A stretch of 64,000 nt of DNA from a bacterium (GTDB lineage Bacteria; Bacillota; Sulfobacillia; UBA995), in contig JAVHLP010000008.1 of the NCBI GenBank assembly GCA_031082145.1, positions 8,818 through 72,817 on the forward strand, given 5' to 3'. The notes under the pieces are model-generated. The model was not told the DNA's origin. It saw only the letters and a program-made list of their open reading frames with translations, and did no database searches. The first letter of the stretch is position 1, and every line of letters begins with the position of its first letter. Position numbers and translations under genes: made by a program. Below are positions 28,937 through 63,955 of the stretch, piece after piece.

Positions 28937-29084
28937 GGGGTGCTCCCCGGCGCCGGCAGGACCGCCGGGCCGGGGCCGGACTCCCGTCCTGTGGTCACTG
29001 GGGGACCGCGATCACCCACCAGACCTTCGTGGGGCGGTCACGCTCATGGTTGCCCGGCGGGCGATGAAAGAGCCTGGAACGGCG

Positions 29085-29118
29085 GGCGGACCCGGCAACC
29101 TTGCCGGATCCGCCCTCG
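29085..29118 (-). terminator. stem-loop immediately 3' of rnpB
   Basis: GGGCGGAUCCGGCAA-GG-UUGCCGGGUCCGCCC (15-bp stem, one mismatch) directly follows the P1 3' strand. Confidence 0.35.
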
Positions 29119-29120
29119 TG

Positions 29121-29489
29121 GCGACCAGATCGATAAGCCGAGTTCAGTCGAGGATGGTCATCTCTCTGGGACCAGGGTTGCCCCATGGCCTCATGCGACC
29201 AACCCGAGGGGTCGGCGGGCCGCGTCATTCCCCTCCTATTTGGTCTTGCTCCGGGTGGGGTTTGCCTAGCCGGCCCGTCACCGGACCGCTGGTGAGCTCT
29301 TACCTCACCGTTGCACCCTTGCCCGTCAGGGACGGGCGGTACGTTTTCTGTGGCACTTTCCTTGGGGTCGCCCCCACTGGGTGTTACCCAGCACCCTGCC
29401 CTGCGGAGCTCGGACTTTCCTCGGGCACGGCCTCGCGGCGCTTGTGCCCGCGACCACCTGATCTGGTCAGCCGATCGGCTTATACTCGC
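29121..29489 (-). ncRNA. rnpB: RNase P RNA (bacterial type A)
   Basis: The minus strand carries the universally conserved GAGGAAAGUCCGAGCUCC...CAGGGUGCUGGGUAACACCCAGUGGGGGCGACCCCAAGGAAAGUGCCACAGAAAACGUACCGCC P4 region, ...GGUAAGAGCUCACCAG..., ...ACCCGGAGCAAGACCAAAUAGG... and the 3' ...GAACUCGGCUUAUCGAUCUGGUCGCC, which pairs with the 5' GCCGAUCGGCUGACCAG as helix P1. This is nearly colinear with E. coli M1 RNA. The 5' end sits ~7 nt downstream of a -10 box. Confidence 0.9.
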
Positions 29490-29495
29490 CCCTTC

Positions 29496-29524
29496 ATGTT
29501 AGCATGGCTAAAGCGACCCGTCAA
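29496..29524 (-). promoter_or_regulatory. sigma-A-type promoter of rnpB
   Basis: On the minus strand, TTGACG (-35), a 17-nt spacer and TAACAT (-10) lie 7 nt upstream of the predicted RNA 5' end. Confidence 0.45.
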
Positions 29525-29630
29525 CAAATCGCCTTGGTCGCAACTCGGCCGGCCGTGGGGAGGCATCAACTTGACCCCGGCGGGTCCTTTGGGTCAGCTC
29601 GGCCCGGGGAACGTTGCCCCGGGGAAGAGC

Positions 29631-31031
29631 TCAGAAGATGATCGTGAAGACGGCTCCCTTTCCGGTGTTGCCGGCCTCAATCTTGCCGTTGTGCTGCTCA
29701 ATGATGGACTCCACAATGGAAAGCCCGATGCCGTGCTTGCCCCCGCTGCCTTTGTAGAAGCGATCAAAAATGCGGGGAAGGTCTTCGCCTGCTATGCCGT
29801 CACCGTCGTCGATCACCGAGACGGTTGTCCTGCCGTTCTCCTGACGGCAGGCAAGGGTGATGGTGCTTCTTGCGTACCTGAGCGCGTTTGAGATGAGGTT
29901 TGAGAAGGCACGGGACATGCGCTTTTCATCGCATAGCAGGTTTACCGGCTCGCCATCAAACTCGAAGATGAACTGGAGATTCCGCTCCGCCGCCAGGCTT
30001 CTCTGACGCTCGGCGCAGTTTGAGAGGAGTTCGCGCAGGTCATGCTGTTCAGTTCTGCCGCTCGGGGTTATGCTATCAATCCGCGAGAGGTAAAGCAAGT
30101 CCTCAACCATCTCGCTGAGCCGATCGGTTTCGCCCATTATCACCCGGCTCGATCGCCTGGGGTCCAGAATCCCGTGTGCGATGCCTTCGGCGTTGCACCT
30201 GATAGTCTGCAGCGGAGTCCTGAGCTCATGGGACACGTTTTGGAAGAAGGTCTTCTGCTCCTTGTCGTAGGCATCAAGCTGAGCGGCCGCTTTGTTCATG
30301 CTCTCGGCAAGCTCTGCGAGTTCCCTATCCCTGTAGTTCAAGGCGCTGGTCGCGAAGTCTCCCTTCCCTATTCTCACTGCAAGCCGTTTGAGCTCTCTGA
30401 CCGGTGCCGCGATCCTGTCCGACAGAAACATGGCGATGCCGAAGGCCAGAACCCCGGCCACACCCATGACCACCGAGAGCACGGTGTTTAGGCGATCGGA
30501 GAAGGAGGTGATGGCCGTCATGTCGATGTAGTATACCAGGTAGGACAGCCCCCCCGGCATCGGCACCGAGACCAGGTAATACTCCCTGTCGGAGACCTTG
30601 AGCCGCAGGATCTCGGCCTTCCGCAGATCCACCCCCTCGGCCTCCAACTGCGCCACGACGGCGCTTATCTCATCATGATTGGGGATGAAGTTCAGGCCGG
30701 GATCGGGGAACAGGAGTTCGTAGTCTTCGGACACGATTACCGCCTCGGCCCTGCCGATCGGGCCCCTCGGCAGCCTTCTCATGTCGGGGATGAACTCCGG
30801 CCTGTGGTCCGGCGGAGGCTGGCTCACGGGTGGGGGGCCTTGGACGTTCCCCATGTCACTTAGCACTTGGAGGGCCTCTCTCAGCTGTTCGTTCACGCTG
30901 GCCTTGATGTACTCGCCGACCAGCAGGTTGAAGACCGCCAGGACAACCAGGAAGATGGCGGCGATCAGAGACAGCACCATGACCAGAATCCGGGTGCGGA
31001 TGCTGATCTTAAGCGTGCGGGTCTTACTCAC
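29631..31031 (-). CDS. sensor histidine kinase (HAMP-HisKA-HATPase)
   Basis: Two TM helices, a HisKA H-box (NVSHELRTPLQTI) and N/G1/G2 ATPase motifs (SNALRYA, DDGDGIAGEDLPRIFDRFYKG, GIGLSIV). GC is lower than the surroundings. Confidence 0.8.
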   Translation of the reverse strand: MSKTRTLKISIRTRILVMVLSLIAAIFLVVLAVFNLLVGEYIKASVNEQLREALQVLSDMGNVQGPPPVSQPPPDHRPEFIPDMRRLPRGPIGRAEAVIVSEDYELLFPDPGLNFIPNHDEISAVVAQLEAEGVDLRKAEILRLKVSDREYYLVSVPMPGGLSYLVYYIDMTAITSFSDRLNTVLSVVMGVAGVLAFGIAMFLSDRIAAPVRELKRLAVRIGKGDFATSALNYRDRELAELAESMNKAAAQLDAYDKEQKTFFQNVSHELRTPLQTIRCNAEGIAHGILDPRRSSRVIMGETDRLSEMVEDLLYLSRIDSITPSGRTEQHDLRELLSNCAERQRSLAAERNLQFIFEFDGEPVNLLCDEKRMSRAFSNLISNALRYARSTITLACRQENGRTTVSVIDDGDGIAGEDLPRIFDRFYKGSGGKHGIGLSIVESIIEQHNGKIEAGNTGKGAVFTIIF

Positions 31032-31725
31032 CGGCCGGGCGTTCCTTAAGGCGAAAACCAAAGCCCCACACCGTCTCAATGAGAGTCCTGCTGCCCGATA
31101 GTTTCTTCCGCAGCCGCCGCACGGTGTCGTCGGCGGCTCGCGTTTCCACTTCGCTATTGTACCCCCATATCTTGTTCAACAGTTCCTCCCGGGATATGGC
31201 TCTGTCTTTGTGCTGGATGAGATAACACAAGAGATTGTACTCATTCGGCGTGAGCTCCAAGGGAGCGCCCTCAAGCACTGCGGTCTTGTTGTTAAGGTCC
31301 ACTCGAACACCGGCATGCTCAAGAACAAGCGGCAGCGGAGTCTTCTTCTCCTTCGTATCGAATTCCATCCGGCGGAATATCGCCTTCACTCTCATGACAA
31401 GCGATATGGCCGAGAATGGCTTGGTGAAGTAGTCGTCGCTGCCGAGGTTTATCCCGGTGGCATATTCCAGCTCACCCTCACGAGCCGTGAGCATGATGAT
31501 GGGAACGGTGCTGATCTTGCGCAATTCCGAGCATACGGCAAACCCACTGGACCCCGGCATCATCACGTCGAGGATCACCAGGTCGCTTGGCCTCTCCCGG
31601 AAGGCGGCGAGCAACTGGTCGCCGTCCTCGAAGGCGCTGACGCAATACCCCTCACTCTCCAAGAAAGACTTGACCACCTCGCGTATGTTCTGCTCGTCGT
31701 CGGCAATGTAGATGCGCTCGTTCAT
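31024..31725 (-). CDS. OmpR-family response regulator
   Basis: The receiver domain has the phospho-acceptor context (DLVILDVMMPG). The winged-helix region reads TPNEYNLLCYL...WGFGFRL. The start is at MNERIYIADDE. Confidence 0.85.
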   Translation of the reverse strand: MNERIYIADDEQNIREVVKSFLESEGYCVSAFEDGDQLLAAFRERPSDLVILDVMMPGSSGFAVCSELRKISTVPIIMLTAREGELEYATGINLGSDDYFTKPFSAISLVMRVKAIFRRMEFDTKEKKTPLPLVLEHAGVRVDLNNKTAVLEGAPLELTPNEYNLLCYLIQHKDRAISREELLNKIWGYNSEVETRAADDTVRRLRKKLSGSRTLIETVWGFGFRLKERPAGE

Positions 31726-31798
31726 GCCCTTGTCCACCTCCCCTTCTATCGTTGCCCAGCCGGCAGCCAGCTTCACCCCGGGGAAGGCAGGGCTCTCC

Positions 31799-33535
31799 TC
31801 AGGGACCACCGGCTGCCACGTGTCTCCGGCCCTTGAAAGACGCGGCCAGGATGACGCCGGCAGTCATGACAAGGCCCCATGCCAGCAAGGGAGCCGCCGA
31901 GTTGCCTTCGCCGGTCGCCGTGAGGCCGGGCTCTTCTCCCGGCCGGATGCCGGGTGCGGGCTCACCGCGGCCACCCGGGAGAGGTCCCGGCGGCAGCACG
32001 GCCCCGGGTTGGCGGCCGGCACCCTCCCCGGGAGGCCTCACCGCGTCGCCACGGGGAAGCTGCGGCGCGAGGGGCCCACCCCCACCCAGGTTCGGCACTC
32101 TACCTCCGGCCATTCCCATGCCGCTACCGGCGTTGGTGGAGGGCAATTCCCCGCTGAGCTGCCGGTGAATTGACGTGGACATTGCGGCAGCGAGTTCAAG
32201 CAGCCCGGGGACGTTTCCGCCCAGGCCCGGCACTCCGCCTATCTGGAAGCCCTGGCGGCCCGGTTGGGCGGCCACCCCTGGCAGCTGCGGCAACACTCCT
32301 GCTTGATCTGCGTCACCCATGGCGCCGCCGGCAACGGTGCCGGAGATGCTCATCACAAACTGCTCGTAGGTGTAGAAGGCGGTGGGATCGGTCCTGACGT
32401 ATTCCGAGATGAGTTCAAAGAGCCGCGCGGTTTCCGCTTCCAGATAGCCCCCGCTCAGGTACTCGGTGGCGACCCATTCGAGGTAGGCATGATAGGTCTC
32501 AAGACGTCGCTCATCCTTTAGGAGTTCGGCGATGAGGGGTCTATCGGCCAGTGGCCCCTGGGTCGGCTCGTCGATGTACACGCTCTGAGCATCGCCGTTG
32601 AAGCCGAAACCACCGAAGGCCATGTTCAGGTCCCATGGCAGGATGGTGAACACCCCGCTTCGCTCGTACAAGTAGTAGTTGTGGGCAAAGTTGCCCTGGT
32701 AGCTGTCGAAGTTGACGAGGGCCGTGCTGACGGCAATGTACCTCAGGGCCGCGTCGACGTCCAGGTACCTCTCGATGTCGCCACCGTTGTTCAGCGCGTC
32801 CAGCATCCTCGTGAGCTTGGACCAGTCGGCCTTCTTCAGCGTACTCTTCACCTCGAGGCTCGAATAGCCTGCCGGATCGGTGCCGTTGTACTTCAAGGTA
32901 TTCCCCACCGACTTGTACAGATCTCCGGTAAGGTCCCCGAAGTTCCGCTCGAGATAGGGCTCAAGTATGCTCTCAACCGCGAGGTAGAGCCCGAAGTACT
33001 CGCCGTTCACATATACGGCGGCAGGGGCGAAGGCCGGCACGGCCACCCCCATCTCCTCGAATATCTGGTAGGAGAGATACTCCCGCATGTAGGAGGGATC
33101 GGAGAAGCCGTTGTTCAGGTTCAACTGGGTCAACCCCGCCAGGGTCTGGTTCTCTATTAGGCCGTTGAAGTTGAGCTTGAAGCTGTAGCGGTTGCCGCCG
33201 CTGCGGGCGACCGTCATGAGGCTGGAATTGCCCTTGGGCCGGATCTTCACGAACGGGTAGACGTCGCCGTTGACGGTAACCGTCGCGATCCGGAACTCCT
33301 CCTGGCGAGCATTTTCTATCATGTACGCCCAATCGGCTTCGCTCATCTCAATGCGGATGTCCATGACCTCGTCGCGCTGGAAATACCGGGTCACGTACTC
33401 GTCACCGTAAACGGTGACGACACCGGTGCCGAACATCCTGAAGCCGGCGATGAAGAGGGTCACCAGCCCGGCCATCACCAGGGACAGGGCCGCGATCTTC
33501 ACGTCGACCGTTCGCTCAGGATGCATATTCACCAC
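31799..33535 (-). CDS. CotH-family protein (spore-coat-protein-H-like atypical kinase), membrane-anchored
   Basis: An N-terminal TM anchor precedes the CotH domain (NGDVYPFVKIRPKGNSS...NLNNGFSDPSYMREYLSYQIFEEMG...NFDSYQGNFAHNYYLYE) and a Gly/Pro-rich tail with a C-terminal TM. GC is lower. Confidence 0.75.
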   Translation of the reverse strand: MVNMHPERTVDVKIAALSLVMAGLVTLFIAGFRMFGTGVVTVYGDEYVTRYFQRDEVMDIRIEMSEADWAYMIENARQEEFRIATVTVNGDVYPFVKIRPKGNSSLMTVARSGGNRYSFKLNFNGLIENQTLAGLTQLNLNNGFSDPSYMREYLSYQIFEEMGVAVPAFAPAAVYVNGEYFGLYLAVESILEPYLERNFGDLTGDLYKSVGNTLKYNGTDPAGYSSLEVKSTLKKADWSKLTRMLDALNNGGDIERYLDVDAALRYIAVSTALVNFDSYQGNFAHNYYLYERSGVFTILPWDLNMAFGGFGFNGDAQSVYIDEPTQGPLADRPLIAELLKDERRLETYHAYLEWVATEYLSGGYLEAETARLFELISEYVRTDPTAFYTYEQFVMSISGTVAGGAMGDADQAGVLPQLPGVAAQPGRQGFQIGGVPGLGGNVPGLLELAAAMSTSIHRQLSGELPSTNAGSGMGMAGGRVPNLGGGGPLAPQLPRGDAVRPPGEGAGRQPGAVLPPGPLPGGRGEPAPGIRPGEEPGLTATGEGNSAAPLLAWGLVMTAGVILAASFKGRRHVAAGGP

Positions 33536-34196
33536 TGAAGCTCATCAGGGCCGCGTTGGTGACCCCCGGGATTATCGACAGCTCGTTCACAAACCTGGTC
33601 TCACCGGTTTTCAGGCGTATCTCGAAGACGAGTTCAATGCCTCTCGCCGCCGAGACCGTCTTGGACTTGACGCGGTACCGGGAGACGTTCCTCCTCATCA
33701 GATCCACGGCATCGCCTTCCGCCCCCTCGTCCGCGCAGTTGATGATCACGATGTAGGGAGTCTCGATCACGTTCTGGCTGACAAAGGCGATGAGGATAAT
33801 GCCGATGATCACCGAACCCAGCACGGCCAGCGGGATCAGCCCCGCGCCCAGGACGATTCCCGCGCCGATGGACCAGAAGAGGAACACCAGGTCCATGGGG
33901 TCTCTTATGGCGGTGCGGAAGCGGATGATGGACAACGCGCCCACCATCCCCAGAGAGAGAACGACGTTGGAGGTCACGGCCAGGATGATGAGCGTCGTGA
34001 GCATGGTCAGAGCCACCAGCGAGACGTTGAAGGGACGCGAGTACATGACGCCCGAGAAAGTCTTCTTGTAGATCAGATAGACAAACATGCCCACGAGGAA
34101 CGCGGCCACCAGGGCCAGCACGGCGTCGGTGAAGGAGAACCCGGTCACCTTCTCCAGGAAGCTGGACTTGAAGATGTCGTTGAACGTGAACCGCAT
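33516..34196 (-). CDS. DUF4956-like membrane protein
   Basis: A polytopic N-terminal half is followed by a soluble C-terminal domain, the architecture that typically accompanies CotH and VTC proteins. The call is from memory. Confidence 0.55.
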   Translation of the reverse strand: MRFTFNDIFKSSFLEKVTGFSFTDAVLALVAAFLVGMFVYLIYKKTFSGVMYSRPFNVSLVALTMLTTLIILAVTSNVVLSLGMVGALSIIRFRTAIRDPMDLVFLFWSIGAGIVLGAGLIPLAVLGSVIIGIILIAFVSQNVIETPYIVIINCADEGAEGDAVDLMRRNVSRYRVKSKTVSAARGIELVFEIRLKTGETRFVNELSIIPGVTNAALMSFSGEYAS

Positions 34197-34217
34197 TGGA
34201 TCGGCTCCTCTCGCAGA

Positions 34218-34904
34218 CTACGTGTAGACTCGGCAGGCGGCGTACTTCGAGACTGCCACCGGCGAGCATTTTCCCAGCTGGATGATGTCCTGGACCACTT
34301 CCGGCAGGAACCCGTCGAACTTCACCTCCAGGATGCAGATGCCGGGTTCCAGGGCCGGTGCGGTTGGGAGATCGGCATCAAACAGGTCGGTGGCGTTTAT
34401 CGACGCCCTGACGTCACTGTCCAGGGTCACCCGCACGTTGCCGGGGCGGTGGAGGTAGGCCTCCCGCAAGTAATCCACAACCGTTCTGGGGAGCCAGCGT
34501 TCCGTCCTGACCTTCAGGTAGAACTCCCTCAATAGCACCTGATCCGAGTCTCTCAGGAAGGCGACCTCACCCCTGCAGATGTCCTGCACCTCTTCCCTGG
34601 TCACTCTGGCTCCGAGCTTCGCGGCCTTGCCGTAGTGCTTGACCTTCTTCTCCAGCCGGATGAAGCTATGGTCGTGATTGTACAAGCGGATGCGGAATTT
34701 CTCCTTCATGGGCGCCCCGTCGATCTTGTCCCGGAGTGCACGGTCCTCGGGGGTGTCGAAATACAGGCTCCGGACATGATAGCTGCCTTCCGGCCGGGCA
34801 TGGGGGTCCAGGCGCAGGACGCAGGACAGCCTGCTCCTGAGAACTGCCGCGTCGGCCACGGTGATGATGTGTTTGAACTCGTTCCGATACGCCAGGTTGG
34901 TCAC
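34218..34904 (-). CDS. VTC-domain (CYTH-like, polyphosphate-polymerase-type) protein
   Basis: The product has the EFKHII, RSLYFDT and LEVKFDG elements of the CYTH/VTC triphosphate-tunnel fold and is 228 aa. Confidence 0.6.
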   Translation of the reverse strand: MTNLAYRNEFKHIITVADAAVLRSRLSCVLRLDPHARPEGSYHVRSLYFDTPEDRALRDKIDGAPMKEKFRIRLYNHDHSFIRLEKKVKHYGKAAKLGARVTREEVQDICRGEVAFLRDSDQVLLREFYLKVRTERWLPRTVVDYLREAYLHRPGNVRVTLDSDVRASINATDLFDADLPTAPALEPGICILEVKFDGFLPEVVQDIIQLGKCSPVAVSKYAACRVYT

Positions 34905-35117
34905 TCGGCGCCACCTCGCTTCCTCGCCCTGGCGGCCTTCTCACCTTGATTCTAACCGGGAACGGGGGTGGGAAGCTCCGAAAAGCAGCGGCGGTAATGC
35001 CGCGGAACTGCCGCAACCCCGCCCCCGCCCGGGAGGACCCTGGCGAAGCAGGATGGGAGAGCCGATCCGGCGAAAGGGAGGCCGCGTACGGTGGCCGGGA
35101 AAGGCCCACAATAGGCA

Positions 35118-36911
35118 ATGGGCCCGCGGCCGTCTAAACGAACCCAGGGGTCAGGAGGCAGGCCGGTGGAAGATGTAGGTTGCGGCAGCGCGATCAACTT
35201 CATCCAGAGCATCATTGACAAGGACCGGGCCGAGGGCTGGAATGACGGCCGGGTGCATACCCGGTTCCCTCCTGAACCAAATGGGTACCTGCATATCGGT
35301 CATGCCAAGGCCGTCATCCTCAATTACGGGCTGGCCGTAAGGAACAACGGTCTGTTCAACCTGCGCTTTGACGATACCAACCCTGCAACCGAGAACGAGG
35401 AGTTCGTGGAGTCGATCATCCGCGATGTCAAGTGGCTGGGAGCGGACTGGGGCGATCGGTTGTTCTTCGCCTCCGACTACTTCGATCAGTTCTATGACTT
35501 TGCCGTTCAGCTGATTGAGAAAGGGAAAGCCTACGTCTGTGACCTGAGCCAGGACGAGATGCGCGAGCACCGGGGGACTCTCACCCGGCCGGGGCGGGAG
35601 AGCCCTCACCGCGATCGCCCGATTGAGGAGAACCTCGACCTGTTCAAACGGATGCGAGCCGGTGAGTTCGCAGCCGGCTCACGAACCTTGAGGGCGAAGA
35701 TCGACATGGCCTCGGCCAACATGAACCTGCGGGACCCCGTGCTCTACCGCATCCTGCACGCGCGTCACCACCGGACCGGGGACCGCTGGTGCATCTACCC
35801 GATGTATGACTACGCCCATCCCCTGGGCGATGCCCTGGAGAGCATCACCCATTCCATCTGTACCCTGGAATACTGCGACCACCGGCCGCTCTATGACTGG
35901 GTGCTCGACAACGTGGATTATCAGCTGGTGCCGGGCGTTCGAGGACGGCCCAAGCAAATCGAGTTCGCCCGGCTGAACACCAACTACACCGTCATGAGCA
36001 AACGCAAGCTCCGGCGGCTGGTTGAGGAGGGCCACGTGAGCGGGTGGGACGACCCCCGCATGCCCACCATTGCCGGTATCCGCCGGCGAGGGTATACTCC
36101 CGAGGCCATCCGCTCCTTCTGCGATCAGATCGGGGTGGCCAAGAGCGATAGCGTGGTGGACCTGGCCTTCCTGGAGCACTGCGTCCGGGAGGACCTGAAC
36201 CGAAAGGCCCCGCGGGTGATGGCCGTCCTCCGGCCCCTGAAGCTGACCATCGTCAACTACCCCGAGGGCCAGACGGAGTGGTTGGAGGTCGAGAACAACC
36301 CGGAGGATCCCGCCGGCGGCAGCCGCCGGGTACCGCTGGCCCGGGAGTTGTACGTCGAGCAGGATGACTTCCGGGAGGATCCGCCTCCCAAATTCTTCCG
36401 CCTGGCGCCCGGCCGCGAGGTTCGCCTCAAGGGCGCGTACATCATCAAATGCGAGCGCGCCCTGAAGGATCCGTCCACCGGGGCGATCATCGAGTTGCAG
36501 TGTACCCATGACCCGGAGACCAGGAGCGGGGGGCCCGGCAGCGACCGAAAGGTCAAAGCCACCATCCACTGGGTGTCGGCGACGCACAGCCTTCCCGCCA
36601 CGGTCCGCCTCTATGACAAGCTGTTTCTGACCGCGGACGCCGAGGCGGGCCCGGAGGACCAGGACTTCACGGCCAACCTCAACCCGGAATCGATCGAGGT
36701 CCTCAACCAGTGCCGGGTGGAACCCGCGGTGGCCCACGCCACCGCCGGGAGCCGCTACCAGTTCCTACGGCAGGCCTACTTCCATGCCGATCCTGAGGAC
36801 TCCCGGGAAGGCCACCCCGTCTTCAACCGCATAGTCAGCCTGCGCGACGACTGGGCCCGGGCACAGAAGGCGCGGTCACCCGATGGACCCGGCGACGGGA
36901 CGGCAAGGTAG
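35118..36911 (+). CDS. glnS: glutaminyl-tRNA synthetase
   Basis: [35 protein letters not shown] is near-identical to the E. coli GlnRS block. KMSKS (VMSKRK) and the C-terminal anticodon-binding domain are present. Confidence 0.9.
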
Positions 36912-57080: not shown

Positions 57081-57542
57081 TCAGTGCAGCAGGGGCTCGA
57101 GATCCACCACGAACGCTCCCCGTGACTCCCAGTCTATCCTGACGTCCGGTCGCCCCAAGGGTATGTCCAGCGATCGGCCCTGCTCGGGATCGGTGATCCG
57201 CAACGAGAACTCGCTGCCGAAGAGCCCCACGTCGAGCACGGCGTTGGTGTCGACGTGTAGCTTGAGCCCCCGGTAGTTGTCGCCAATCTCGCTGCTGACG
57301 GCAGGCAACGCTTCCAGCGGCCCCAACCCCAGCCCGGCAGCAGTTGACTCGTGGCCATAGGCCGCCTCCCGCCCACAGGCGGCCACCCGCTTGCCCAGGA
57401 TGACCATTCCGTTTATCAGGTAGCGATCCAACCCCCGGCTGCCCGCCACCGGCTCGCCCGACCGGGTCAGGTGGAGTTCGAACCGGGTAGTGTCGTCCAC
57501 CGACAACGAGGTCTCGGTATAGAGCTCCACGCCCAGCTTCAC
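57081..57542 (-). CDS. hypothetical protein downstream of the MNIO gene
   Basis: The GTG at 57542 follows GGAAGGGGGTGAGG. The product is 154 aa. I recognise no family. It could be an MNIO partner protein. Confidence 0.35.
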   Translation of the reverse strand: MKLGVELYTETSLSVDDTTRFELHLTRSGEPVAGSRGLDRYLINGMVILGKRVAACGREAAYGHESTAAGLGLGPLEALPAVSSEIGDNYRGLKLHVDTNAVLDVGLFGSEFSLRITDPEQGRSLDIPLGRPDVRIDWESRGAFVVDLEPLLH

Positions 57543-57621
57543 CTGCCTCACCCCCTTCCGCTGGCCGCGTTCCAGGCTATGCGGGACATCTGTCAGGGGT
57601 GAGCGGGCGGGCCGATGGGAC

Positions 57622-58422
57622 TCAGTCCAGCAGCTCGCGCAGTCGCCCCATCTGACGCCGGAGTGCCCCGGGATCACTGCGGATCTGATCCTGCTCTCTC
57701 ATGCCGCCGTACTCCAGGGTCAACACCCGCGGCCGGCACCGATGCAGCGCCCACCGCAGCAGTTCGTAGCCTTCGCCGCCGATCTCCTCGTGCCAGTCAT
57801 CCAGCACGCCGTCGACGACCGCCGGCCCGGAGATATGGATCTCCTCCACGCGATCCAGCGGCAGCCAGGAGAGGTAGTCCCCCACGGTTTCGCCCCGGTA
57901 CCACGATGTGACCTGCGCATGAGCCAGGTCCAAGAGGAACTGGCAGCCGGCGGCGTCCACCACCCGGCTGATGAACCGGGGGTCACCGGTGAAGGCGGGG
58001 AATGCGGGTTGCCCCAGGGCGGGCACGCCCACCGGCTCGTTCTCCAGGTGCACGGGCAGGAGGGTGGTCGCCTCCAGGATTCGCACGTCGGCAACGATCC
58101 GCTCTAGGACGATGTCGGCGCCGACGGCTTCGAGATCCATCGCCGGGTAGCCGAGATGTACGGAGAGATAGCGGGAACCGGCCAGCTTAATAGCTTGCAG
58201 CAGGCTATGCGGGTCGAACTCCCCGGCGAAACGGTCATCTCCGGGGCTCGAGGTCTGGACTAGCCCATGAAGCAGTATTCTCCCCGCTTGGTAGAGCCCT
58301 CGAAGAGCGTCCTGGTGGGCGAGCAAGGTCCGGGGGTACATTTTGACCAGGTCAACCAGGTCCGGTTCTCTCTCCAGCAGGGCCAAGAGCGCCGGCGAGC
58401 AGTTTGCGGCAAGCAGGGTCAC
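57622..58422 (-). CDS. DUF692 / MNIO (MbnB/TglH-like multinuclear non-heme iron oxidative enzyme)
   Basis: The product is colinear with MbnB blocks: LENEPVGVPA matches LYLENYPSI, FLLDLAHAQVTSWYRG matches VLFDASNAICAQNNTG, EIHISG matches HFHVAGYG, and TLEYGGMREQD matches TYERDFD. Its start overlaps the stop of the permease fragment (ATGA). Confidence 0.7.
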   Translation of the reverse strand: MTLLAANCSPALLALLEREPDLVDLVKMYPRTLLAHQDALRGLYQAGRILLHGLVQTSSPGDDRFAGEFDPHSLLQAIKLAGSRYLSVHLGYPAMDLEAVGADIVLERIVADVRILEATTLLPVHLENEPVGVPALGQPAFPAFTGDPRFISRVVDAAGCQFLLDLAHAQVTSWYRGETVGDYLSWLPLDRVEEIHISGPAVVDGVLDDWHEEIGGEGYELLRWALHRCRPRVLTLEYGGMREQDQIRSDPGALRRQMGRLRELLD

Positions 58423-58709
58423 GGCATCAACCTCCCGGGACTATATGACGGAATCGGGGGCACAACGGTCTCGACGGTCAGGGAGGCCGGTACTCGACCC
58501 GGCGACTCATACCGCAAGGCCGCCACCGGCTCCATGCGCGCGGCCCGCCGGGCCGGCCACATCCCGAAGAACAGCCCCACCGCCAGTGAGAAGCCGAAGG
58601 CTAGTCCTATCCCCCACCACGATGTGGCCACGGGCAGGTGGCGGATGAGCCGGGCGGCCAGCCTGGCTCCCCCGATCCCCACGGCGATCCCGATCAGCCC
58701 GCCGGCCAC
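58419..58709 (-). pseudogene. displaced 3' fragment of the FtsX-type ABC permease gene
   Basis: The 96-aa ORF is about 95% identical to the C-terminus of the intact permease (62082..63260) but continues ...ALRYESPGRV... into the MNIO start. Confidence 0.7.
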
Positions 58710-58727
58710 GGAGAGAACGGCGGCCTC
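58516..58727. repeat. direct repeat, left copy (~210 bp), flanking the inserted island
   Basis: It matches 62094-62306 at about 96% identity, with about 7 mismatches and one 1-nt indel by eye. Confidence 0.8.
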
Positions 58728-59039: not shown

Positions 59040-59390
59040 TCACTTCTGCTTCTCCGCCGCCCCTTCCATCCGCAGTTTCTGCAAGAGTGGCGCAGCTTCC
59101 ATAATGCTCTTCAGTCCTGCCTGCGGGACACAAGCGAGTCGCGAGAGCATGTCAAGGTCGTCACGATGGGCAAGTTTCCCATCACATGCACAACGGGAGT
59201 TGCATGGGCACTGGCTGCCGTTCCGTGAATCACAAGGGCAGTGACCCTCACAGCATTTCGATGCAGCTGATATGTCGAAGGTGGGTAGCTTCGCCGCTGC
59301 GAGGGCCGGCACCACTGCGAGTGATAGCTGCTCAGCAATGCTCTTCGCCAGCGCGCTCAACTCCTCCGTCCTGAGGACCTCTGACATCAT
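59040..59390 (-). CDS. Cys-rich 117-aa protein (candidate RiPP precursor or metal-binding peptide)
   Basis: An AAAGGAG RBS lies 6 nt before the ATGATG at 59390. The core CCEGHCPCDSRNGSQCPCNSRCACDG has 8 Cys in 26 residues, with predicted helical leader-like N- and C-terminal flanks. The listed ORF start at 59501 is less likely. Confidence 0.5.
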   Translation of the reverse strand: MMSEVLRTEELSALAKSIAEQLSLAVVPALAAAKLPTFDISAASKCCEGHCPCDSRNGSQCPCNSRCACDGKLAHRDDLDMLSRLACVPQAGLKSIMEAAPLLQKLRMEGAAEKQK

Positions 59391-59439
59391 CGCCAGCTCC
59401 TTTCGTTCGAAGGCTCCTCCCTTTCCCGTCACAGCCGCG

Positions 59440-60912
59440 TCACACCAAAGCATCACCTCCTCCCGTCTGGCTGGGGGCAAACAGAGTGCATAGCAGCTCA
59501 TCGGCCGTGATATTGCGGGTGAGGAAGCATCGTTGCAGTGCCTCGGAGCCTATCACAGCCTGCAAGCCGCCCAGCGCCGCTTTGGCGATGCAGTCGCCGC
59601 CGCAGTTCCACTTCACGAAACAGTCTCGACACCGCTCAATCCCTGTGACGTCGAGGCTCCTGAGCCGGCGCACCTTGTTGTTGTCAAGGACGAACGCATT
59701 CAACGATGGGTCGTAGCACCCATAGATGAACATGTCCCCACGAGGATCTGATAGGTCAAGAACTTCGTAACAAGAGGACACGAATCCGTCCGTTGAGACG
59801 CAGAAGTTCAAGTCGGGTCCGTAGGCGCTACAGAAGCTCGATCGGAGACCATCCAACCGGCAACTTGACAGGCCGATCTGCATTCCGTTCTGGCGTCCAA
59901 ACGCACTGGCTTCTCGGAAATGGATCAAGAACTTCGACATGAGATCGGAGTCTGCCAGACCAGCGTCACGAGCACGCCCGGTCTCGCACACCGGCTCGAA
60001 GTTGATGTACCGGCATTTCGTCTTCTCGCGGACAAACACGGCAAAGTCCTTCATGCTCTGTACGCCGATGGAAGTGACCGTGCTGCGGATGCAGTAGTCC
60101 ACATGGTGCTCCTCCAGCAGCCTCAGTGAGCGCATGAGCGTCTCAAAGCTGCTCGCGCCGCTCCGCAATGGCCGCTGGACGTCCATGATCTCTTGTAGGC
60201 CATCCATTGAGATACCGACACGGAAGCCATGCTCTGCGAGGAATGATGCTTTGGCCGTGCTCAGAATGCCATTAGTTACCAACGAGAACCGCGGGGTTAG
60301 CCCCTCTCGATCGCAGAGGTCTTCTGCCAAGAGCACCGATTGGCGGAGAAGGGGCCAATTGGCCGTGGGCTCTCCCTGGCCGTGAAACTCGACCTCAAAC
60401 GTGTCCTTCGATCTGGCAACCGAATTGTCGAAGACAGTGCGCAGGGCCGCTTCTGCCGTCTTCCAAGACATTGCGCGGGGGCTGTCGCCACCGTGAATGT
60501 AGCAGTAGATGCAGGCCATTTGGCAAGCCGATGTAAGCGAGAGCGTAAGCTGTGTGGGGAGAAAATCATCTTCTTGATGCCCATTGCACATGCGAGGGTG
60601 CAGTCTTGCCTTCGTATCGAGGAGACGGATCAAGTCCTCATCGGGCTTGATCTCACATTCCGAGAGGCACGTCGACATTGAGGCGGTCGGATTGAGCAAG
60701 ATGCTGGCGAGACCCGCGCCGGTAATGAGGACCAGCAAACCCTGAAGGGGAGAATACAGCAGATACCCGTCGAGATAAGGTATGGCAAACAGGTCGTCTC
60801 CTACCACGAACCAGGAGTCGCTACCGTGGTACCGAACGCACTCACTCAGCCGTGCTTGGAGTGCAGCCTCGGTTGAGAGTTGTTGCAGCGACAACGGAGC
60901 GCGCTGTGCCAT
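59440..60912 (-). CDS. radical SAM enzyme with C-terminal SPASM domain
   Basis: CQMACIYC is a CxxxCxxC motif about 130 aa from the N-terminus. The C-terminal Cys cluster reads CRLDGLRSSFC...CYE...CRDCFVKWNCGGDC. Length is 490 aa. Confidence 0.8.
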   Translation of the reverse strand: MAQRAPLSLQQLSTEAALQARLSECVRYHGSDSWFVVGDDLFAIPYLDGYLLYSPLQGLLVLITGAGLASILLNPTASMSTCLSECEIKPDEDLIRLLDTKARLHPRMCNGHQEDDFLPTQLTLSLTSACQMACIYCYIHGGDSPRAMSWKTAEAALRTVFDNSVARSKDTFEVEFHGQGEPTANWPLLRQSVLLAEDLCDREGLTPRFSLVTNGILSTAKASFLAEHGFRVGISMDGLQEIMDVQRPLRSGASSFETLMRSLRLLEEHHVDYCIRSTVTSIGVQSMKDFAVFVREKTKCRYINFEPVCETGRARDAGLADSDLMSKFLIHFREASAFGRQNGMQIGLSSCRLDGLRSSFCSAYGPDLNFCVSTDGFVSSCYEVLDLSDPRGDMFIYGCYDPSLNAFVLDNNKVRRLRSLDVTGIERCRDCFVKWNCGGDCIAKAALGGLQAVIGSEALQRCFLTRNITADELLCTLFAPSQTGGGDALV

Positions 60913-61448
60913 TGAGTGTCACTTGCCTTTCTGTCCTGTACCTGCCGGAGGAAACGCTCTGAGCGGCTTGAAAACCACCGAACCCTGGCTCCGCGACGTC
61001 GCAGCCCATGCCTGCTGCCAATATCTGGGTTCACCGTGTACGCGGTGACTCCTCTTTGTAGCCCGCTGGTTGGGTCGACACCGTCAACGCTTCTGCGCGC
61101 TCCCGAGTCCCGCGAAGGACATGGGCCAACAAGGAGGTCGCTTCCTCCAGGTTCATGGGCGGGAGGGGAGACTGGAACCTACCTGGGCATGCCGCCGCGA
61201 CTCCTGCGGTGTTGGCTGTCTGAGTGAACCGAGTCCCCACCGAGAGTGCCCGCCAGTATGTCGGTTCCGAGGGCACGATAGTGGCAGCTGCCCGTGAGCC
61301 CCGTGACATCGAGCGTTCACTGCGGCGGGCCGACGGTTGGCCGCGCTAACCTGCGTCAACCGTAGTGCATCGGACTGGGCACCGACGGCCGGTGTCAGGT
61401 GGAGCGGATGTCAGCCTGTCGTCTTCCCGGCAAGGGACGCTGGTGAGG

Positions 61449-62060
61449 TTACCACGAGTAGCAGCGGAGCTCGACGTTCACCTCATCGAGGCTGAAGTGG
61501 TCAGGGTCCCACGGCCCGCCAAGCCACGCCACCATCTCGTCGTGCTCCTCGCGGGCGGGATCGGCGATGATCTCCAGTAGGCGGTAATAACCCCCGATGC
61601 CGCCGCAGTCCTCGGGCGGGCAGGCTCGCCGCCCGGCCAGGCAGGTCGGGCAGGTCACACTCTCCTGGGCCGGCAGGATCCGCTCCACCTTGACCGAGTG
61701 CCTCCAGCCGTCCCCGTAGTCATACTCGTACAGGAACGTGCTCCCCTCGAAAGGGACCAATCGCTGCAGCACCGCCCTTGTGGCCTCGCGCATGTCGAAC
61801 CAGGGATCGTCCTCGAGTTCCTCACCGTACTCCTCGCCGGCAATCCTGAAACGGTACAGATGGCAGTTCAGCCACCCCATGGCGATCTGAATGGCCATGT
61901 GCAGCCCGGCCAGGGTAATGTTACCCGGCACCTGGAGCCGCCGCCAGATCGGGGGCTTGCTGCCGCCGAGAGTGACTTTGAGCTGGTAGACACGCCTGGG
62001 TGAGGCCCGCCGCGTCCGCTGCGGACCCGCTTGCCGCCCGATCTCCTGTTGCCGTGACAA
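61449..62060 (-). CDS. pRiA4b ORF-3-like family protein
   Basis: VYQLKVTLGGSKPPIWRRLQVPGNITLAGLHMAIQIAMGWLNCHLYRF matches the PF07929-type N-terminal signature, a family often seen on plasmids and transposon-like elements. Confidence 0.6.
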   Translation of the reverse strand: MSRQQEIGRQAGPQRTRRASPRRVYQLKVTLGGSKPPIWRRLQVPGNITLAGLHMAIQIAMGWLNCHLYRFRIAGEEYGEELEDDPWFDMREATRAVLQRLVPFEGSTFLYEYDYGDGWRHSVKVERILPAQESVTCPTCLAGRRACPPEDCGGIGGYYRLLEIIADPAREEHDEMVAWLGGPWDPDHFSLDEVNVELRCYSW

Positions 62061-62081: not shown

Positions 62082-63260
62082 TTAGTCGTGTCGAAGGGCC
62101 GCCACCGGCTCCATGCGCGCGGCCCGCCGGGCCGGCCACACACCGAAGAACAGCCCCACCGCCAGTGAGAAGCCGAAGGCCAGTCCTATCCCCCACCACG
62201 ATGTGGCGACGGGCAGGTGGCGGATGAGCCGGGCGGCCAGCCTGGCTCCCCCGATCCCCACAGCAATCCCGATCAGGCCGCCGACCACGGAGAGAACGGC
62301 GGCCTCGACCAGGAACTGTAACAGCACGTCCCGGTCGCGAGCGCCGACGGCCTTGCGGATCCCGATCTCGTGGGTGCGCTCGGTGACGGTTGCCAGCATG
62401 ATATTCATGATCCCGATCCCGCCGACGATCAGCGAGATGCTGGCTATCCCGGTCAGGACCCCGGTCAGGATGGTGAGGACGGAGTCGATGGCGTCGATCA
62501 TGGCCTGCTGGTGCAGGACCCCGACCCCCGCGCCGCTGTGGCGTTCCTTCAGGAGGCTCTCGATCTCGTCCGCCAGCGCGGCGACCTTGGCCGTGCTCTC
62601 CGCTCTCACGGCGATGTGGCCTAGCTCGGTCCGCAGGCCCAGCTCATCGGCAGCTTCCAGGCTGATATAACTACGCCGGTCGAAGTTGTACATGAGAACC
62701 GACGGCTGCGGGGCAAGCACGCCGCGGACCGTGAAGGCGGTATCGGCCAGCAGTACCTCCTGGCCGACGGCGCTCCCACCGGGGAACAGGGAGACCGACA
62801 GTCTGGCTCCCAGGACGATCCCCCGGCGGTCACCGGCTGCCAGGAAGCAGCCGTCGGCCAGGGACAGGCGGAAGGCCGCCTCCGCAGCCGGTTCGGTCGC
62901 CACCACGGTGCCGGTCACCCGCAAATCCCCGGCCGCCAGTTCACCTGAGGAATCCGCCACCGAGCAGGCTGCCAGGACACCCTCCAGCCGGGAGATGGCA
63001 GCGGTATCGGCCGGGGTGAGCCGGGCCGGGGGCCGGGAGCCGCGGGGCGCCGGCCCCATGCCCCCGCCGGTCACCATCAGGTGGTCGGGGGACATATCGC
63101 CCAACCGCCCGGTGGCCTCCTCCCTCGCCCCCTGGCCAATGGACACCAATGACACCACGGCGGCCACGCCGATGATGACGCCCAGCATGGTGAGACCCGA
63201 GCGGAGCTTGTTGGCCCCCATTCCATCCAGGGCCAGCCTGGCATAAGCCAGCAAGGTCAT
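62082..63260 (-). CDS. ABC transporter permease, FtsX/MacB-like
   Basis: It has an N-terminal TM segment, a periplasmic domain and three C-terminal TM helices with the ...IGIRKAVGA motif. Its start overlaps the ATPase stop by 4 nt. Confidence 0.85.
62094..62306. repeat. direct repeat, right copy (~210 bp), forming the 3' end of the intact permease gene
   Basis: It matches 58516-58727. The junction with the island falls exactly after the ...AALR codon, and island sequence supplies the last residues HD and the stop. Confidence 0.8.
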
Positions 63261-63955
63261 AGGCCCGCCCTCCTCTCGTCCCGGCTCACGCGGCCATCCC
63301 GGACCTCTATAATCCGGGGGGCGGCGGCGGCGATCTCGGGGTTGTGGGTAACAAGGATCAGCGTCCGGCCCTGCCGGTTGAGTGAGCCGAACAGGTCCAG
63401 GATCTCCCGGCCGGTACGGGTGTCCAGGTTGCCCGTGGGTTCGTCGGCCAGTATGAGACCGGGGTCGTTGACCAGCGCCCGGGCTATGGCCACCCGCTGC
63501 TGCTCGCCCCCGGACAGCTCACCGGGGCGGTGGGTCAGCCGATCCCCCAAGCCGACCTGCTCCAGGACACCCCCGGCCCGCTGCCGGGCCGCCCGCGGCG
63601 CTACCCCGGCATAGGTCAGGGGAAGAACCACGTTGTCCAGCGCGGCCAGGCGGCTCAGCAGGTTGAAGGTCTGGAAGACGAACCCCAGCCGCCGGTTCCT
63701 CAGCCGGGCCAGACCATCACCGGTCAGAGCAGTCACGTCTTGGCCGTCAAAGCGGTACCGGCCCGATGATGGCCGGTCCAAACACCCCAGGATATGCATC
63801 AAAGTTGACTTACCCGAACCCGACGGCCCGATGATGGAGACGAACTCGCCGGCATCAACGGCGAGGTTGACCCCCCGCAGGGCGTCAACGCTACCCCGTC
63901 CCTGGCCGTATACCTTGGTGAGCTCCTCCACTTCCAAGAGAGGCATCAGCCGCAT
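63257..63955 (-). CDS. ABC transporter ATP-binding protein (MacB/LolD-like)
   Basis: Walker A GPSGSGKST, the signature LSGGEQQRVAIARAL, Walker B ILADEPTGNLD and the H-loop are all present. Confidence 0.9.
   Translation of the reverse strand: MRLMPLLEVEELTKVYGQGRGSVDALRGVNLAVDAGEFVSIIGPSGSGKSTLMHILGCLDRPSSGRYRFDGQDVTALTGDGLARLRNRRLGFVFQTFNLLSRLAALDNVVLPLTYAGVAPRAARQRAGGVLEQVGLGDRLTHRPGELSGGEQQRVAIARALVNDPGLILADEPTGNLDTRTGREILDLFGSLNRQGRTLILVTHNPEIAAAAPRIIEVRDGRVSRDERRAGL

Follow-up and report, generated by a model that had tools for sequence, protein, structure and literature searches.

The question raised by this locus is whether a radical S-adenosylmethionine (SAM) enzyme and a small cysteine-rich protein, encoded by adjacent genes, act as maturase and substrate, and if so, by which chemistry. 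Both genes are located on the minus strand of a 64,000-nucleotide stretch of contig JAVHLP010000008.1, from a bacterium of the Sulfobacillia (lineage UBA995); this whole stretch is referred to as the window. Much of the newly discovered chemistry by which peptides are cross-linked stems from radical SAM/SPASM maturases, one of its main sources. In a sequence-only reading of the window, the two genes had been described as a ranthipeptide- or sactipeptide-like pair. Based on the analysis presented here, it is probable that they constitute a self-contained cassette of maturase and substrate which is horizontally mobile, with a three-cluster enzyme of the CteB/PapB/QhpD type, likely introducing ranthipeptide-like cysteine thioethers.

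A radical SAM gene and its cysteine-rich neighbour

The radical SAM/SPASM maturase gene (59440-60912, minus strand) is an open reading frame (ORF) of 490 amino acids, running from the ATG at 60912-60910 to the TGA at 59442-59440 and supported by a PF04055 match, a 21-sequence alignment and an AlphaFold2 (AF2) model. The public model of this protein (P0004, 455 amino acids) begins about 35 codons too late, a start which would cut off the conserved W34 and helix 14-25. The gene of the small protein, the putative substrate (59040-59390, minus strand), was delimited on the basis of its homologues and its adjacency to the radical SAM gene. The sequence-only reading had placed a cysteine-rich ORF downstream of the maturase gene, as was found, but had given it 117 amino acids and a gap of 46 nucleotides. 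Positions 59393-59391 read GCG, the program-made translation starting with AMMSEV, and the ATGATG of the ORF begins at 59390; with this start the protein therefore has 116 amino acids, followed by the stop, and lies 49 nucleotides from the radical SAM stop. The near-consensus ribosome-binding site that had been noted, AAAGGAG-N6-ATGATG, was read at 59403-59397 on the minus strand, six nucleotides ahead of ATG 59390. In the public annotation of the ORF (P0001, 137 amino acids) an upstream ATG is used, inside the end of the radical SAM gene, and the NCBI label, with this different start, is 'hypothetical'.

Homologues of the cysteine-rich protein were found at E-values of 1e-27 to 1e-39. A word-based search with the small protein returned three proteins, the window's own included, and a profile search returned 12. 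An exhaustive hmmsearch of 1.84 billion representatives gave 45 matches at E <= 1e-3, of which 16 at E <= 1e-10. With the exception of a 969-amino-acid repeat protein, these representatives (44 of the 45) are 58 to 161 amino acids long. Across unrelated metagenomes the small ORF retains 48-59% protein identity and its cysteine positions do not vary, a conservation which, by comparison of the sequences, is far beyond chance. In a set of 5.8 billion proteins the enzyme family accounts for about 22 clusters, and it is present in two of 185,579 species-representative genomes. The radical SAM/small-protein family is very rare and originates almost entirely from uncultured organisms. No relatives were found among the IMG/VR viral contigs and no small-protein match in PLSDB.

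Adjacency was assessed for members with a readable contig, the contexts of the distant representatives P0039-P0078 being left out. Every one of these small proteins adjoins a radical SAM gene of the same enzyme family. The cysteine-rich ORF abuts the radical SAM gene in L001-L003, L005-L008, L010-L012, L013/L019, L014-L016, L018 and L020-L025, and a hidden Markov model (HMM) scan of the loci fetched with the enzyme located it directly downstream wherever sequence was present. Two paralogous copies of the small gene flank a single radical SAM gene in L003/L013/L019 and in L018. After all-versus-all clustering of the ORFs of the loci included, the enzyme and the small protein were the only families in common; no conserved protease or exporter was found beside the pair. 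The nearest outgroup radical SAM proteins (25-29% identity), among them P0026 and P0027 at 25-26% and a Chlorohelix protein of 29% matched in PLSDB, have no cysteine-rich partner.

The subtypes of the small protein (types A to C, described below) go with clades of the enzyme, two subtypes tracking two clades. Within a type, radical SAM identities range from 44 to 79% and alignments of the small proteins cover the entire length; between subtypes they cover about 65 amino acids only. Pairwise identities of enzyme and partner were weakly correlated (rho 0.30, p 0.04), because short local alignments inflate identity, and the qualitative congruence of clades and types was used instead.

Architecture of the enzyme and the small protein

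The alignment of the enzyme (A2) contained 21 sequences, the window radical SAM protein and 20 homologues of 42-52% identity. Only ten cysteines are invariant in it, three in the radical SAM motif and seven in the SPASM region, in agreement with the two cysteine clusters of the sequence-only reading. The radical SAM cluster motif CxxxCxxC is C130-x3-C134-x2-C137 (60502-60525, minus strand). With this motif, a PF04055 match (E 3e-14, 53.9 bits versus a cut-off of 29.5) and the superposition of the AF2 model on radical SAM structures, the enzyme belongs to the radical SAM superfamily. The SPASM region, C361-x14-G376-x4-C381...C428-x2-C431-x5-C437-x3-C441...C462 (59527-59832, minus strand), has its seven cysteines and G376 invariant. 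It was compared with the pattern CX9-15GX4C...CX2CX5CX3C...C, which binds two auxiliary 4Fe-4S clusters. By motif and modelled structure the enzyme is a member of the SPASM subfamily, with predicted cluster binding; the Pfam SPASM HMM PF13186 gave no match to the window radical SAM protein.

In CteB, the first auxiliary cluster (AC1) is ligated by C344, C362 and C413 and the second (AC2) by C400, C403, C409 and C432 (PMC10177961). PapB and Tte1186 share this three-cysteine AC1 scheme, in which the substrate Cys or Sec binds the AC1 iron (PMC10177961). The number and spacing of the cysteines in the window enzyme are those of CteB, PapB and Tte1186. C261, the fourth AC1 ligand of anaerobic sulfatase maturase (anSME), aligns to a conserved Leu, and AC1 is therefore predicted to have just three cysteine ligands (cysteine numbering from PMC10177961).

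About 115 to 120 residues precede the radical SAM core. The sequence-only reading had noted an N-terminal extension of about 130 residues; C130 is the first cysteine of the motif, and the N-terminal domain has about 115 residues. The AF2 model of the enzyme, built from the 21-sequence alignment, had a mean predicted local distance difference test score (pLDDT) of 84 and a predicted template modelling (TM) score of 0.83. At the N-terminus, a helix (14-25), five strands (26-63) and three helices (65-98) were predicted at pLDDT 80-90, and W34, A43, P55 and G58 are invariant; a PqqD-like recognition element consists of a three-stranded sheet with helices. From the AF2 model and its alignment to CteB, residues 1 to about 105 (60598-60912, minus strand) are provisionally regarded as an RRE-like domain (recognition element of RiPPs, peptides that are made by ribosomes and then modified post-translationally), putatively binding the leader. 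The top Foldseek match of the model was CteB (5WHY/5WGG, E 2e-17, target TM 0.73-0.76), followed by anSME, TigE, SkfB, ChlB and SuiB. The alignment to CteB has 454-472 columns on a target of 418-440 residues and spans nearly the whole length, thus taking in the N-terminal RRE domain of CteB. CteB was also the top profile match in PDB (E 1e-29). With a single-sequence phmmer search of PDB, anSME ranked first at 52 bits and CteB scored 47 bits.

None of the curated NCBIfam cut-offs was reached by the window enzyme. The best score was for PapB (NF047865, 103 bits versus 340), followed by the nif11-peptide maturase (98 bits), anSME (TIGR03942, 89 versus 349), the SCIFF maturase (TIGR03974, 88 versus 425) and QhpD (TIGR03906, 83 versus 453). 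Over all 21 members, PapB (3e-41) ranked first of the curated families, ahead of the SCIFF maturase (3e-36), with the nif11-peptide maturase (1e-33) third and QhpD (2e-31) fourth. Of these closest enzymes, PapB, the SCIFF maturase and QhpD are thioether formers. PADLOC reported just a generic radical SAM similarity at the level of viperins and no support for a known defence system.

Identity as an anaerobic sulfatase maturase was considered and rejected, given the score of 89 bits, the Leu at the position of C261, the N-terminal domain of beta-sheet and helices and the nearly full-length alignment of the model to RRE-bearing CteB. The ORFs inspected near the pair include no sulfatase gene. The sequence-only reading had named two observations that would count against it, an enzyme within the anSME clade and a cysteine-rich ORF conserved without a radical SAM neighbour. 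By the above features the enzyme is not an anSME and, among the readable contigs, the ORF was never found alone, which supports the interpretation as a ranthipeptide- or sactipeptide-like pair.

The small protein consists of four parts in the alignments: an N-terminal helix, a linker, the core and a C-terminal region of about 40-45 residues. The amphipathic, leader-like helix (59322-59369, minus strand; AF2 helix 9-24) has the motif E-[LI]-x-x-L-A-x-x-h-h-x-E-L and is conserved across subtypes. In most members the linker contains a hydrophobic-[AG]-G motif, which in our view recalls the double-glycine end of a leader; the window protein has Ala-Ala-Ala. The cysteine-rich core CCEGHCPCDSRNGSQCPCNSRCACDGK (59175-59255, minus strand) reads CCEGH, CPCDSR, NGSQ, CPCNSR and CACDGK in succession and is made of C-x-C-[DN]-x-[KR] repeats. 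Its units are CC-E-G-H, CPC-D-S-R, CPC-N-S-R and CAC-D-G-K, giving eight cysteines in 27 residues (KCCEGHCPCDSRNGSQCPCNSRCACDGK), and a ninth cysteine is in the C-terminal part. The core was as described in the sequence-only reading, with AF2 helices on both sides. The C-terminal helical hairpin, or follower domain (59046-59159, minus strand), was modelled as helices 79-88 and 91-116 at pLDDT 75-80. The model as a whole is of low confidence (pLDDT 59), and residues 26-77, including the core, are predicted to be disordered (pLDDT below 50).

Across the family the core is a tandem array of three to seven units, with six invariant core cysteines in alignment A3 and five in alignment A4. Among 185 CxC motifs in 51 members, G, P or S occupies the middle position in 71%, the motif is followed by N, D, E or Q in 83%, and K or R stands at +3 in 71%, from which the consensus unit C-[GPS]-C-[ND]-x-[KR] was derived. 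The window protein is of type A, with three to four units and the follower motif LPQxxLKxVLEAAPxxxKxR, conserved among homologues as L-P-Q-x-x-[LI]-K-x-[VI]-[LM]-E-A-A-P-h-h-x-K-h-R. Type B has five units and a follower with WVINPDP, and type C is a more divergent third subtype; P0040-P0042 are intermediates between subtypes. The small protein had no family match in Pfam (E up to 10) or NCBIfam (E up to 1). No NCBIfam precursor model was matched by the small proteins, and no metallothionein family in Pfam or NCBIfam. With its conserved N-terminal helix, a repetitive core of three to seven units, adjacency to the putative maturase and duplicate copies, the small protein has the features of a RiPP precursor. 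The length of the precursor and the central position of its cysteine cluster, about which the sequence-only reading had voiced caution, are both conserved traits of the family.

More distant subfamilies of the small protein (P0057-P0078) follow the same logic. One of them has the core C.ENCGCNEACGCK..CCE.KC.CDGK and the follower NP.F..h...FD....KTI.DF, and in another CSCELKCVCDQK is repeated up to seven times. A distant cassette was found in a cultured strain, on plasmid pNK81 of Caballeronia sp. NK8 (L028, 4785-6769), with a radical SAM protein of 32% identity. The ORF downstream, unannotated in the PLSDB record, encodes a different CxC protein. Its N-terminus (IDRRTLLK) is twin-arginine-like, its core is CSCNKESGCACVGHERCVCIGN, its linker reads PTPTPTPTP and its C-terminal domain has about 70 amino acids. 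This cassette could give an experimental handle. In a metagenome-assembled genome of Candidatus Methanoperedens (L004, 7650-7960), two short similar ORF fragments precede an archaeal radical SAM gene of 32% identity. They end in LLYAGQIIINSRSFPCPWEN and LLHAGQIVINSRTSACGGD, each before a stop, have a leader like that of P0068 and contain no array of CxC motifs; either they are decayed, perhaps, or they belong to another kind of precursor. In the type-A loci L002 (2281-3884), L005 (403-1901), L009 (2371-3911) and L020-L023, an extra, shorter radical SAM/SPASM gene of about 300-350 amino acids was present beside the conserved pair, together with a protein of 155-174 amino acids with no Pfam match. 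Both are absent from the window and may constitute an optional second tailoring step.

Proposed modification and its alternatives

We infer that the two proteins are maturase and substrate, because of their strict adjacency and co-divergence, the duplicate copies around one enzyme, the leader-like conserved helix ahead of a repetitive disordered core, and an enzyme which has a domain of the peptide-recognition type and an open auxiliary-cluster site. Thioether chemistry is favoured since the closest enzymes are mostly thioether formers, since the AC1 pattern is that of enzymes binding the donor thiolate, and since most cysteine pairs are trailed by Asp, Asn, Glu or Gln, the acceptor residues of PapB and NxxcB. 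In sactipeptides a radical SAM enzyme joins the cysteine sulphur to the alpha carbon of an acceptor residue, in ranthipeptides to a non-alpha carbon. In the proposed mechanism, the RRE-like domain would dock the conserved N-terminal helix of the small protein, and the disordered tandem C-x-C-[D/N]-x-[K/R] segment would thread into the active site. There, a substrate cysteine thiolate would bind the open iron of the three-cysteine AC1, as the cysteine pattern suggests. The 5'-deoxyadenosyl radical would then take a hydrogen from a side-chain carbon, most plausibly the C-beta of the Asp or Asn after the cysteine pair, and a thioether would form between the cysteine sulphur and this carbon. Occurring once per unit, this would give about three to four rings in the window protein.

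Both a link within the unit (C-x-C-D) and a link between units ([DN]-x-x-C) are compatible with the sequence of most units. The terminal CxCDGK, which is the most conserved unit, has no cysteine downstream, and this favours a donor within the unit. As no protease or exporter accompanies the pair and both helical flanks are conserved, the product may stay a cross-linked mini-protein, by analogy with QhpC, rather than become a short secreted peptide.

Several observations weigh against this interpretation. A central core and a conserved follower of 45 amino acids are atypical for sactipeptides and ranthipeptides, and a follower of this length that is conserved is atypical for RiPP precursors in general. 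Being rich in CxC, free of aromatic residues and furnished with Lys, Asn and Gly, the sequence also resembles metallothioneins, small proteins very rich in cysteine that hold d10 metals in thiolate clusters. Two cysteines per unit exceed the need of one thioether per unit, and the conserved K/R and the second cysteine are left without explanation in the thioether scheme. The D/N position varies, with Ala in CPCAS[KR] and His in CGCHDR; a tolerance like that of NxxcB would accommodate such occasional residues. The Pfam PqqD (RRE) HMM did not match the enzyme even at E 10 and, since this model and the SPASM HMM both fail to match, the RRE assignment is structural and provisional.

Among the alternatives, a maturase and substrate with another chemistry was judged unlikely. 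An alpha-carbon sactionine, an anSME-like conversion of Cys to formylglycine, or a new transformation of Cys, Lys or Arg at CxC[DN]x[KR] would be involved. The enzyme is about equidistant from anSME and CteB, in phmmer as well as in NCBIfam (89 bits for anSME and 88 for SCIFF), no curated cut-off is reached, and conservation of the K/R at +3 comes close to that of the D/N, which simple Cys-Asp/Asn linking does not explain. The sulfatase motif C-x-P-x-R contains an Arg, which the K/R at +3 loosely recalls, but the sulfatase spacing C-x3-R mismatches C-x-C-x2-[KR]. Moreover, a three-cysteine AC1 and an RRE-like domain are traits of thioether synthases and not of anSME, and over the whole enzyme family PapB and the SCIFF maturase, both of which form thioethers, are the best-scoring models and QhpD ranks fourth. 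Somewhat more improbable still is a small protein which is mainly a metallothionein-like metal binder, or delivers metal or Fe-S clusters, with the radical SAM enzyme as a marginal modifier or partner in a mobile metal-handling module. The eight cysteines in 27 residues, the CxC spacing, the lack of aromatic residues and the richness in Lys, Arg, Asn, Gly and Ser fit this explanation, as do the predicted disorder of the core, known from apo-metallothioneins, and the lack of a conserved protease or exporter. The cassette is mobile, like many metal-resistance determinants, and at L018 it adjoins genes for a TonB-dependent receptor, FecCD and a periplasmic binding protein. This is, however, the only locus with a metal-uptake neighbourhood, no metallothionein family was matched in Pfam or NCBIfam, and the cysteine-rich core takes up just 27 of the 116 residues. 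Strict pairing with an enzyme that has a domain of the peptide-recognition type and an open AC1 site would be the behaviour of a substrate, and a conserved N-terminal helix with multiple paralogues around one enzyme is typical of precursors.

That the small ORF might be a frame which arose by chance or has no function, the radical SAM enzyme acting on something else, is extremely improbable. The ORF lacks a family annotation and is 'hypothetical' at NCBI under a different start, but its level of identity and invariant cysteines in unrelated metagenomes, the adjacency throughout, the consensus ribosome-binding site and the 45 representatives among 1.84 billion proteins all speak against it, and by this sequence conservation the explanation is effectively refuted. 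A more far-reaching version of the favoured thioether cassette, which we hold to be tentative and rather doubtful, is that of a new radical SAM product: a metallothionein-like mini-protein of about 100 residues with its CxC[D/N]x[K/R] hexads stapled in an undescribed ring topology, representing a new RiPP-like class. If true, it could for example contain very small Cys-to-Asp/Asn rings with one free thiol per unit, and the product would be intracellular, or its release would require no dedicated protease or exporter. The two genes would then be an accessory trait spread on plasmids and islands, perhaps for dealing with metals or for inter-microbial or anti-phage conflict.

The system is minimal, consisting of two genes, cleanly defined and directly testable. 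A novel topology of cross-links, or a stapled mini-protein that binds metal, could emerge from the family. Should the product be another Cys-Asp/Asn thioether peptide, the sequence space of the ranthipeptides would still be widened and a compact scaffold for engineering gained.

Genomic setting and comparison with known systems

The pair is situated in the part of the window with the lowest G+C content (0.58 versus about 0.70). It is bracketed by a 215-nucleotide direct repeat, together with a gene of the PRiA4_ORF3 family (61449-62060, minus strand; PF07929, E 3e-67), situated at the island's upstream end, and a spacer of 536 nucleotides. The copies of the repeat, found by repeat search and pairwise alignment, are 95% identical and have sharp edges. 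The upstream copy (62092-62306) is the 3' end of an intact MacB/FtsX permease gene (62082-63260). The downstream copy (58513-58727) is a displaced FtsX 3' fragment with a PF02687 match; its stop overlaps the GTG with which an MNIO (DUF692) gene (57622-58422, minus strand; PF05114, E 5e-13) begins. From the repeat copies and the FtsX fragment, a block of 3.4 kb was apparently inserted into an ABC-transporter-MNIO operon. A permease 3' end of its own seems to have come with it: the intact gene at present terminates in RHD and a stop, and the native end is left as the fragment. No integrase was found inside the 3.4-kb island. In the 536-nucleotide stretch (60913-61448), where the sequence-only reading had seen no convincing small ORF, the HMM scan indeed found no second precursor, unlike in type-B loci. 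Rfam scans of the island and this spacer gave no meaningful match, a CRISPR-DR57 match (E 0.38) being due to chance, and promoter and terminator scans of the same region gave nothing meaningful.

Since the MNIO start overlaps the displaced FtsX stop, the ancestral operon consisted of an ABC ATPase, the MacB/FtsX permease, the MNIO and a partner; it is now split by the island, with parts at 57081-58422, 58419-58709 and 62082-63955. The best NCBIfam match of the MNIO is ApyH (67 bits versus a cut-off of 400), which places it in no curated subfamily. It is followed by an ORF of 198 amino acids with no family match (MNIO region 57081-58422, minus strand), and an MNIO precursor peptide was not found in the window. 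A link of the pair to the adjacent MNIO gene was rejected, as there is no MNIO beside the pair in other loci and the island insertion separates them.

Elsewhere the pair was also found in mobile settings: one contig resembles a plasmid and encodes Rep3, MobA/MobL and a coupling protein, and in one locus an integrase fragment is close by. Such locations, on plasmids as well as islands, point to an accessory function of the cassette that is selectable. In the type-C loci (L024, 1081-2733 and 5134-5298), the pair lies between a gene for a TIR-domain protein of 550 amino acids and a transposase DNA-binding fragment, in a block adjoining the housekeeping genes for rpoN, an ABC ATPase, an LptD_N-domain protein and a topoisomerase. 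It looks like a defence island, yet there was no PADLOC match. A second low-G+C block in the window (about 29000-36000, 0.60-0.62) contains a two-component sensor kinase and response regulator, next to which there are one large ORF, at 31799-33535, and a further two of smaller size. By eye, we take ORFs of this block to be CotH-like, VTC-like and DUF4956-like, and the block is probably another acquired island.

No description of the hexad motif or of the radical SAM/small-protein family was found in the searchable literature. The enzyme resembles CteB of Clostridium thermocellum (PDB 5WGG/5WHY), a synthase of ranthipeptide Cys-Thr gamma-thioethers, in the three-domain layout, with a putative RRE ahead of the radical SAM barrel and the SPASM domain, and in the 3 + 3 + 4 pattern of cysteine ligation, but the identity in the structural alignment is only 16%. 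SCIFF precursors are about 45 amino acids long and have a six-cysteine core at the C-terminus. The precursors of this family differ from them by their length of 100-140 amino acids, central CxC-repeat core and conserved follower; with 88 bits against 425 for the enzyme and 116 amino acids and eight core cysteines for the precursor, the window pair lies outside the SCIFF system.

QhpD installs several Cys-to-Asp/Glu thioethers in the small protein QhpC, which stays a protein and is not a secreted peptide. The TIGR03906 alignment spans the radical SAM and SPASM regions of the window enzyme, but the score (83 versus 453 bits) is not that of a QhpD, no qhpA or qhpB dehydrogenase genes are nearby, and the core sequence of QhpC is unrelated to that of the window protein. 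In freyrasin (PapA), PapB forms six Cys-to-Asp beta-thioethers in repeated CX3D motifs, so that the substrate likewise consists of tandem short units of Cys and an acidic residue; the three cysteines of AC1, which binds the substrate thiolate, are another likeness (PMC10177961). The acceptors of PapB are Asp and Glu (PMC9413430). The CX3D repeat differs from the two-cysteine unit C-x-C-[DN]-x-[KR] found here, as do the long conserved flanks of the precursor, and with 103 bits against 340 and a CxC[DN]x[KR] substrate motif the enzyme is not a PapB (NF047865).

In the streptococcal beta-thioether RaS-RiPP system NxxcB/NxxcA, the acceptor is the Asn of N-x-x-C, a short motif that is repeated, with Ala, Gln and Asp reported to be tolerated at this position (PMC9389541). 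Contiguous hexads create [DN]-x-[KR]-C, with a spacing like that of NxxC, but the NxxC rule cannot cover all units, as the last and most conserved one, CxCDGK, has no cysteine downstream. With anSMEcpe (PDB 4K36-4K39) the enzyme has the radical SAM and SPASM core in common (target TM 0.72-0.76), but anSME lacks an N-terminal RRE domain and its AC1 is fully ligated by cysteines. The combination of a radical SAM/SPASM enzyme and a repetitive cysteine-rich peptide is also that of the Haft-type systems (TIGR04115 CXXX-repeat, Cys-every-fifth CefB NF038107, CcpM TIGR04068 and TIGR04463). To their maturase models the enzyme scores 52-71 bits versus cut-offs of 350-600, and their precursors differ in cysteine periodicity, the pairs here being CxC in hexads. 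A radical SAM/SPASM enzyme with a cysteine-rich repetitive precursor is a well-known kind of system. The present family, itself uncurated, would not on its own surprise specialists on RiPPs. It departs from the norm in the length of its precursor, the central core, the conserved follower, the hexad motif, its two-gene minimalism and its mobility.

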